A stretch of DNA of 64,000 bases from Escherichia coli (GTDB taxonomy: Bacteria > Pseudomonadota > Gammaproteobacteria > Enterobacterales > Enterobacteriaceae), in the NCBI RefSeq assembly GCF_024502345.1, contig NZ_JALDNN010000003.1; one strand, written 5' to 3'. The notes under the pieces are model-generated. The model saw only the letters and a program-made list of their open reading frames with translations. It was not told the DNA's origin and did not search any database. Below are positions 34,152 to 35,512 of the stretch, piece after piece (within the stretch, counting starts at the first letter, position 1; every line of letters starts with the position of its first letter). Both the position numbers and the translations under genes were made by a program.

Positions 34152-34229
34152 TTGCAGAATACACCGCAGTTCGGCTGAGATACATCTTGTCGCGCACTGC
34201 GTGCAGCCTCCCCGAAACTGCCCGGAGCC

Positions 34230-34380
34230 GTGCCAAGGCGATATAGGCCCCTTGGGAGTCGGCAAGACGCATCTGGCCATCGCACTGCGCTATCGGGCGG
34301 CGCAGTGCGGCATCAAGACCCGCTTCATCACTGCGGCCGACCTTGGTGCTGCAACTGGGCGCGGACCAGCGTAACCGTCC
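34230..34380 (+). pseudogene. IS21-family IstB-like ATPase fragment
   Basis: In-frame translation ...[33 protein letters not shown]... matches the IstB Walker-A region; no intact ORF; coordinates approximate. Confidence 0.45.
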
Positions 34381-34634
34381 GGGCATCCCGGCTGGCTTGA
34401 CCCCGCCAAGCTAAGAGATGGTGGCAGTTCGTGGATGCCGTTTCCCGGGTGCACGCGATCCGAGACCACGCGATCAAGCAGGAAAACAAGCACCTGGGCT
34501 TGCCTGACTGACCGCAGGCCGGCGACGACAAGGTGGAAAAGTTCGGCGTGTGGCTCTGGCGGCAACGATCCCGCGAAGGGCGGACGGTGCTTGAGCTGTT
34601 GAACGTAAGCGTGCGGGCAGACCGTCTTGCGCGA

Positions 34635-34800
34635 CTATGCCGGATGCCACCTATGCGGCAGCAGCTCTGCAATCTCACTCGCCCGCTGCGTCGGCAACCG
34701 TGTCAGCACATCCTTGAGATAGGCATACGGATCGTGCCCATTATTACGGGCCGACTGGATCAAACTCATGATCGCAGCAGCGCACTTGAGCATGCGATCC
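34635..34800 (-). pseudogene. IS66-family TnpC C-terminal remnant
   Basis: C-terminal ...IMSLIQSARNNGHDPYAYLKDVLTRLPTQRASEIAELLPHRWHPA matches the IS66-family transposase C-terminus; followed on that strand by a GTAAGCG-type terminal repeat near 34605. Confidence 0.5.
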
Positions 34801-35007
34801 CGCGCCGAGCATTTGAGAAGGCAACGGGATGAACGCTGGCTGGATAGCCGTGGTTTTCTGGGTATGCAGCCGAATCCATTTGTGGACGAGGTTGGCATTG
34901 AGGCTGTAGCCCAAGGCGATGTTTGCGATGGAGGCACCGGGTTCAGAACACTCCTGAATGACCTGGGCCTTGAAAGATTTGCTGTAGGTACGGCGCTGAG
35001 GGGGCAT
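34744..35007 (-). pseudogene. IS66-family TnpA-like accessory ORF remnant (element internally deleted; tnpB and most of tnpC missing)
   Basis: MPPQRRTYSKSFKAQVIQECSEPGASIANIALGYSLNANLVHKWIRLH... matches the IS66-family TnpA N-terminal HTH region. Confidence 0.5.
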
Positions 35008-35512
35008 GGAAAATCCGCTTGATGGGCCATGGCCTTCGGCGGCGGTGTCGGGAAGGTGTGTTGGCAGGACGGATACTGTTGAACTACGTTGTCTGGGGCA
35101 ACGGAGGTTTTTCGGCCCGACTCTGGAACGCGATCCGCAGCGACGACTGGGCAATTCCGCACATTGGCCTGAGCAGCCTCGGGGAAATCGTCGGCTGGGC
35201 GCGCCCAGACGAGTTTCCGCCAAGGAACATGCGCACGAGCAAGGGGCTGCGGGCGCTCGGTTACAACGTGAGGATCGGTGTTTGATCTGCGGCCGTGGGC
35301 GGCGCCCGCAAGGTCCCGATCAACCCACCGTCCCCTGCGCCGGACCGGCCCGCCCTGGCATACCGTCCTTGAAGATTTGAGTCACATCAATCGGCCAGCA
35401 GATCGCTGGATGTTGACTCTTGACTTTTGGCATATTAGGCGCAATATCTTGCAAAGTCTTGCAAGAACTTCCTCAGGCGAGGCCGCGTGACGACGGAACT
35501 TGTGGGGGTGGT

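Follow-up and report, generated by a model that had tools for sequence, protein, structure and literature searches.

The 64-kb stretch of Escherichia coli DNA analysed here (the window) carries the tnsABCDE block of a Tn7-like element at 26528-34151 and, downstream of tnsE, a heat-resistance island, also called locus of heat resistance (LHR) or transmissible locus of stress tolerance. The island starts at about 35.5 kb with orf1, which encodes a helix-turn-helix (HTH) protein, followed by sHSP20, clpK, a cls-like gene and ftsH. We dissected the 1.27 kb that separate the two, from the tnsE stop codon (34149-34151) to the island (34152-35420). This region consists of the debris of three insertion sequences (ISs) and the broken tail of a phospholipase-D-like (PLD-like) gene (Table 1). 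The same stretch is present with 100% identity in many E. coli chromosomes and plasmids, in LHR-carrying records and in plasmids of Salmonella Senftenberg and Klebsiella pneumoniae, and the Prokaryotic Genome Annotation Pipeline (PGAP) has already marked a partial 'ATP-binding protein', a 'transposase domain-containing protein' and a 'transposase' here in E. coli records of 100% identity.

In the passages retrieved from two papers on the island (PMC8290217; PMC4563881), it is reported to be flanked by mobile elements and transposases, among which IS3, IS5 and Tn7 are mentioned, and a systematic analysis is described as missing. Our literature search found no paper that dissects the present flank, and neither PMC4563881 nor Kamal et al. 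2021 (PMC8290217) does so in the retrieved passages. The region is already present in hundreds of public genomes and belongs to a known type of structure; only its fine structure is new. The present analysis adds the target duplication of an IS66 element, its empty sites, a second IS66 end and the remnant of the PLD-like gene, which are absent from the literature searched, to the extent of those passages; none of them had been noticed in the initial annotation of this DNA.

Table 1. Features between tnsE and orf1, with positions in the window
Feature	Position	Strand	Basis or remark
Spacer, 91 bp	34152..34242	.	Directly after the tnsE stop codon
istB internal fragment (IS21 family, Walker-A region), 128 bp, frameshifted	34243..34370	+	Profile and DNA homology
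IS66-B left end (left inverted repeat GTAACCGTCCGGGCATCC... and subterminal sequence), 53 bp	34371..34423	+	Homology to IS66 left ends
PLD-like remnant, part 1 (internal region)	34424..34604	+	Colinear with uninterrupted homologues after in silico IS removal
Target-site duplication, copy 1, TGTTGAAC	34597..34604	.	8 bp
IS66-A, 472 bp, internally deleted, both ends kept	34605..35076	-	Ends align with the Rms139 IS66 element
tnpC 3' tail, last ~50 codons and stop	34635..34796	-	PF13817 (DDE_Tnp_IS66_C) complete
tnpA 5' part, codons 1 to ~64-66 of ~107	34816..35007	-	NF047595 match
Target-site duplication, copy 2, TGTTGAAC	35077..35084	.	8 bp
PLD-like remnant, part 2 (C-terminus, stop 35283-35285)	35077..35285	+	Conserved C-terminal motif
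Island start, variable promoter region upstream of orf1	35286..35512	+	Homology break at 35286/35287; outside the debris
orf1 (HTH)	35513-35794	+	PGAP position; HTH_17, E 1e-17

The first IS66-family element, IS66-A, retains both ends. Its right inverted repeat, GTAAGCGTGCGGGCAGACC, begins on the plus strand at exactly 34605, with GTAAGCG at 34605-34611, where the initial annotation had noticed a terminal repeat of the IS66 type. It aligns with the repeats of the intact IS66 element on the Pseudomonas aeruginosa plasmid Rms139, which is 2,378 bp long and has GTAAGCG ends and an 8-bp duplication of its own. The left inverted repeat, GTATCCGTCCTGCCAACACACCTTCC, which runs from 35076 in the minus-strand direction, gives a good alignment with the left end of the Rms139 element and is degenerate (GTATCCG vs GTAAGCG, with 16 of the 27 terminal positions matching the right repeat). 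A perfect 8-bp direct repeat lies on both sides of the element, and together with the two ends it identifies IS66-A as a complete-ended element of 472 bp.

We compared the interior of IS66-A with the intact IS66 elements on a Pseudomonas veronii plasmid (for tnpA) and on Rms139 (for the tnpC tail). The tnpA part matches positions 1-62 of the 113 in the IS66 TnpA model NF047595 with an E value of 8e-19, whereas an IS3 model reaches only 1e-3; a minus-strand open reading frame (ORF) at 34744-35223 matches HTH_Tnp_1 (E 6e-7). The tnpA part is 76% identical to the P. veronii tnpA product in amino acids and 78% identical in DNA. In a different frame, the minus-strand ORF 34635-35162 covers the full 39-residue profile DDE_Tnp_IS66_C (E 1.8e-16). 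Over this tnpC tail, intact Pseudomonas IS66 transposases share 85-86% of the amino acids at their C-termini and the ISPpu30 family 80%; the tail's DNA is 79% identical to the end of the Rms139 tnpC, and its product corresponds to residues 462-511 of 511 in the protein alignment. The internal deletion, with its junction within about 34789-34819, amounts to about 1.9 kb and includes tnpB and about 90% of tnpC. The fusion of a minus-strand TnpA N-terminus to a TnpC tail, and the internal deletion of tnpB and most of tnpC that it implies, had both been proposed from the letters of the sequence and are borne out by these comparisons. IS66-A shares the GTAAGCG terminal repeat and the 8-bp target duplication with the IS66 family (the Rms139 element, the ISPpu30-family elements and the NCBIfam IS66_ISRel24_TnpA subgroup), but differs in its size of 472 bp, its degenerate left repeat and its lack of tnpB and of the DDE catalytic domain; lacking the latter two, it is a remnant and not an autonomous member.

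IS66-A interrupts a gene. In silico removal of the element and one copy of the repeat restored a plus-strand reading frame that runs through GRTVLELLN up to the insertion point, continues with YVVWGNGG and ends with RIGV and the stop codon. A search of 5.8 billion proteins returned 103 relatives, among them uninterrupted ones of 172-234 amino acids that align gap-free across the insertion point, including five colinear with the restored frame (P0002, P0003, P0021, P0036 and P0038). An alignment with 14 homologues was colinear and had 16 invariant columns, and the C-terminal motif of the remnant, LGEIVGWARPDEFPPRN.RT.KGLRALG, is common to the 103 database proteins. The restored ORF matched nothing in Pfam or NCBIfam, so its identity comes from homologue searches only. 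An exhaustive profile-free search (276 relatives, E<=1e-3) showed that full-length relatives have about 450-460 amino acids and that the region homologous to the window is their C-terminal half. They resemble PLD-family nuclease-like proteins: they carry an N-terminal PLDc_2/HKD domain and are weakly similar to the defence proteins DrmC and ZacB. The window differs in keeping only the last ~120 codons, with homology starting at about 34424 and the HKD part absent. At 34509-34511 the remnant is also broken by a nonsense codon, TGA; the corresponding residue of homologues is R, S, A or T. Across the family (P0104-P0241), the C-terminal region of about 230 amino acids has no Pfam family and contains the invariant motif W.R(P)..(F/Y)PPRN.RT.K.L(RA)LG. 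The contexts of uninterrupted genes (AbiE, an SNF2 helicase, transposases) gave no functional lead.

The site without IS66-A was found in four independent metagenome contigs (L014-L017). The 8-mer is present as a single copy in L014, L015 and L016, and L017 has TGTTGAAT, with one mismatch. In L015 the PLD-like gene, an allele that still has the HKD motif, lies directly before orf1 (HTH_17), HSP20 and a long ORF in the clpK position; in L017 the PLD-like gene is likewise followed by HTH_17. These empty sites next to orf1 are direct evidence of transposition into a gene neighbouring the island.

The second IS66-family end, IS66-B, begins with GTAACCGTCC; the Rms139 and P. veronii elements align with it at their left ends, and it stops just short of a hairpin common to other IS66 left ends. 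Of the IS66 family it retains this 53-bp end only. Two sites of an Azotobacter salinestris plasmid match it with 83-85% identity. An IS66 TnpA start follows each of them at a distance of about 50-90 bp, and the ORFs downstream of both sites match NF047595 (E 1.7e-23 and 4.6e-10). We rejected the reading of this 55-bp Azotobacter match as the 5' region of an IS110 element, which the annotation suggested: the IS110 sits inside the IS66 tnpA there, and the match is the IS66 left end. At 3503-4843 of that plasmid, the coding sequence annotated as 'IS110 family transposase' opens with the first 36 codons of the IS66 tnpA, so that the annotation fuses two elements. On its outer side IS66-B directly abuts sequence from the interior of istB, the signature of an IS66 insertion into an IS21 element. 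Its inner side is joined illegitimately to the PLD-like remnant at 34423/24, and this junction is older than the insertion of IS66-A, since L017 has the junction without IS66-A. An 8-bp repeat, GCAGTTCG, present at 34166 and at this junction (34424), was judged to be due to chance, as 18 such repeat families occur in 1.4 kb.

The istB fragment bears out the reading of an IstB-like, IS21-family Walker-A sequence on the plus strand: the ORF 34201-34374 matches positions 98-131 of 238 in IstB_IS21 (PF01695; E 4.6e-9), including GVGKT, the Walker-A motif, and positions 106-139 of 253 in the NCBIfam IstB model NF006616 (E 3e-14). These protein matches to both IS families are far beyond chance. The DNA is 91% identical to nucleotides 319-446 of the 780-nt istB on pXWY, a plasmid of Pseudomonas sp. 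XWY-1, and 76-81% identical to the istB genes of ISKpn7 and ISAzo17; a single inserted base near 34342 shifts the frame. Homology runs from exactly 34243 to 34370/71 and stops at internal positions of the gene on both sides; it spans only 34-43 of about 260 residues. The likeness to the IS21 elements is confined to this Walker-A-bearing part; the scrap differs from them in lacking terminal repeats, both outer parts (5' and 3') of istB, and istA, which PGAP does not annotate beside the fragment in identical records. Judged by sequence, it is best classed as a fragment of an IS21-family member and not itself a member. Kinship with another IS21 copy in the window was ruled out, there being no other istB-like sequence in it.

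The debris had been proposed to mark the junction of two acquired segments. A seam does exist, but it is narrower than the debris, and the IS66 remnant is not the junction: it is a target-duplicated insertion in a gene of the island flank. The flank on the island side extends left to at least 34397 (L017), and the Tn7 side extends right to about 34151, which places the seam within 34152-34396. In a diverged P. aeruginosa tnsE (85% identical), homology is lost close to the stop codon, at 34133. All carriers found, a P. fragi plasmid included, have an identical tnsE-istB join, which points to one old event and not to ongoing remodelling.

Parts of the region are widespread. We found 1,290 places in 1,274 plasmids that share some of it, most of them in Klebsiella and only over 34692-35287, and in over 1,000 Klebsiella plasmids the island comes with IS66-A and the PLD-like remnant. 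In the examined representative of this dominant class, the left bound is an IS3-family element at 34692, and no tns genes occur within about 5 kb. In a K. quasipneumoniae plasmid (L004), an IS5 cuts the region at 34895. Among E. coli records, 34 (from 32 genomes) have the entire region with the same tnsE-istB join, as do about 80 plasmids. The P. fragi plasmid, from a meat isolate, shares all junctions at 99-100% identity, though most of its tns genes are deleted. In this plasmid the bases at 5925-5931 correspond to window 28941 / 34024, so that the equivalent of 28942-34023 (tnsB in its 3' part, then tnsC and tnsD, and most of tnsE) is missing; the equivalent of 39366-42602 (cls, ftsH) is also deleted, and the debris is intact. 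Across lineages, the left truncation point of the PLD-like gene varies (34424, 34529, 34555, 34692 and 34895), while the right boundary at 35286/87 is constant. Free decay on the left side of a selected promoter would account for this pattern. Homology to the Klebsiella, P. fragi and metagenome alleles breaks at 35286/35287, a breakpoint that recurs in L015 and L016, and the functional left boundary of the island can be placed at about 35286.

The region encodes no complete transposase gene, the istB fragment carries a frameshift and the PLD-like remnant a nonsense codon. Neither an Rfam search nor a sigma-70 promoter scan of the region gave a match, and three terminator-like matches were not clearly above shuffle expectation. 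The tnpA fragment has 1 synonymous and 3 non-synonymous codon changes and the PLD-like remnant 2 and 5-6, respectively; the pattern looks neutral-like, on very small counts. Island alleles exist that have no IS66-A (L015, L017) or a further truncated one (L004, by IS5). We conclude from these features that the region shows no sign of function or selection and is probably inert debris that persists by linkage.

Taken together, the data argue, with a probability of about 90%, that the region is a non-functional scar of nested transposition and deletion that belongs mostly to the island's own left flank. From the directly observed identities and ends of the fragments, the duplication, the empty sites and the distribution, we infer the following order of the older events, with the deletion in IS66-A following its insertion. 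A PLD-like gene for a protein of about 455 amino acids would once have stood just upstream of orf1 and in the same orientation. It would then have lost its 5' two-thirds, the rest becoming fused to the first 53 bp of IS66-B, which had itself inserted in an IS21 element. Of that element, 128 bp of istB would have remained, joined via 91 bp to the end of tnsE. IS66-A would subsequently have transposed into the PLD-like remnant, duplicating 8 bp, and would have lost about 1.9 kb of its interior, comprising the 3' third of tnpA, the whole tnpB gene and some 90% of tnpC. Later, in other lineages, the IS3-family element (in most Klebsiella plasmids) and IS5 (in the one K. quasipneumoniae plasmid) would have made the cuts at 34692 and 34895. 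Since no working transposase is encoded, the fragments are unable to move on their own; they would persist by hitch-hiking beside a selected island whose promoter begins after 35286.

Several points weigh against this reconstruction. The 91-bp spacer had zero matches in Pfam, NCBIfam and Rfam and is left unexplained. The order of the oldest events (IS21, IS66-B and the tnsE join) comes from junction geometry only, and no record of an intermediate state was found on the tnsE side. IS66-A may have been full-length or already deleted when it inserted. Finally, the substitution counts behind the neutral-like pattern are small, and the region may have a regulatory side-effect on the island.

Alternatively, the debris could be a seam at which cargo was taken up or rearranged by an active Tn7-like transposon, which would make the island mobile Tn7-like cargo; a remodelling of the cargo region at this place had been suggested in the initial annotation. 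The position fits, as the debris starts one base past the tnsE stop codon, where the cargo of Tn7-family elements begins, and the island can have Tn7 elements at its flanks according to the passages retrieved from PMC8290217. The element also has a clean right end, TGTGGGATGCAAATAAAG (TGTGGG...), at 26408, within a region (26408-26465) that contains two identical 17-bp repeats, CATCCGTATAAATAAAG, resembling TnsB sites at 26429 and 26449. Several E. coli records share a breakpoint at 26408, and strain 81 has a truncated integrase gene abutting the end. All five tnsABCDE genes are annotated in a record of 99.7% identity. However, neither a left end nor inverted TnsB sites turned up when up to 3 mismatches to the terminal 18-mer and the TnsB-site 16/17-mer were allowed, whether in the window, in about 25 kb past the complete island of E. 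coli strain 81 or in about 16 kb past that of K. pneumoniae 6072. An inverted-repeat search of 24-64 kb yielded only chance-level pairs. The Tn7-like element looks one-ended in the examined records, and with no left end found, the cargo status of the island is not demonstrated. Moreover, the IS66-A/PLD part travels with the island in the Klebsiella plasmids, whose examined representative has no nearby tns genes; metagenome contigs place it in other contexts; and the tns genes are decaying in some carriers. Of the suggested remodelling, the graveyard of IS21 and IS66 fragments therefore stands, but the cargo is unproven and the identical join speaks for a single old event. We regard an origin of the debris as a cargo seam as unlikely.

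The scar reading leaves room for two more speculative ideas, each of which we hold to be improbable. The debris block (34024 to ~35286), which is 99-100% identical between E. coli and P. fragi next to a promoter-orf1-sHSP20-clpK 5' module of only 58-85% identity, might be a portable homology anchor for recombination that swaps alleles of the island core. Separately, the PLD-like protein of about 455 amino acids, whose C-terminal domain is unannotated, might be an uncharacterised nuclease that originally belonged to the island. Compared with the P. fragi plasmid, the window shows 99-100% identity over 34024-35050 and mostly 91-100% after about 37300. Between them, at 35287-37300, identity is 58-97% (mostly below 90%) over the promoter, orf1, sHSP20 and the 5' part of clpK, an allele swap in the island core.

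IS66-A with its two terminal repeats and perfect 8-bp duplication could also be a non-autonomous derivative, similar to a miniature inverted-repeat transposable element, that full-length IS66 elements mobilise in trans; intact IS66 elements occur on the same kinds of plasmids. The degenerate left repeat argues against mobility of this kind, as does the distribution: there is about one match per record (1,290 places in 1,274 plasmids), with no sign of amplification, and every place with an examined context adjoined the island. We consider such mobility very unlikely.

Two small ORFs of the region are annotated as proteins. The 87-amino-acid 'transposase' WP_001446199 (34744-35007, minus strand) consists of the N-terminal 64 residues of TnpA followed by an out-of-frame tnpC tail. 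The 88-amino-acid 'hypothetical protein' WP_001446200 (35022-35285) has its start codon inside the left end of IS66-A, which makes it a chimera of an IS end and the PLD-like remnant. That either has been domesticated to act on the island, for example as a regulator, is hardly credible: both ORFs are intact and annotated in hundreds of records, and the TnpA part retains most of the HTH_Tnp_1 domain, but island alleles without IS66-A (L015, L017) or with the tnpA fragment truncated by IS5 (L004) exist, the substitutions are neutral-like, and the two ORFs owe an end or a start to out-of-frame tnpC and to the IS end. These two 'proteins' are artefacts of the IS66 insertion that have spread through hundreds of records.

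Lineages of the heat-resistance island can be traced by the nested junctions and the 8-bp duplication, which are exact markers testable by polymerase chain reaction. In biology more broadly the region is of little importance, being made of dead fragments of well-known IS families that public annotation already flags as partial.

Some further features lie close to the debris or elsewhere in the window. At 35447-35466, in the island promoter region some 50-65 bp upstream of orf1, an overlapping pair of palindromes, TCTTGCAA/TTGCAAGA, may serve as operator for the orf1 HTH product. Although the surrounding sequence diverges strongly, the motif can be made out in each of the four aligned loci. An IS26 copy of 820 bp (47570-48389, with ends GGCACTGTTGCAAA / TTTGCAACAGTGCC) interrupts the island just after the MscS-like gene, and the distal island genes trx, kefB, psiE, htpX and degP, present in E. 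coli strain 81, are absent from the window. Upstream of the tns genes, an IS1-like sequence at 18556-19330 shares 96.5% identity with the IS1B copy that E. coli strain 81 carries near tRNA-Phe.

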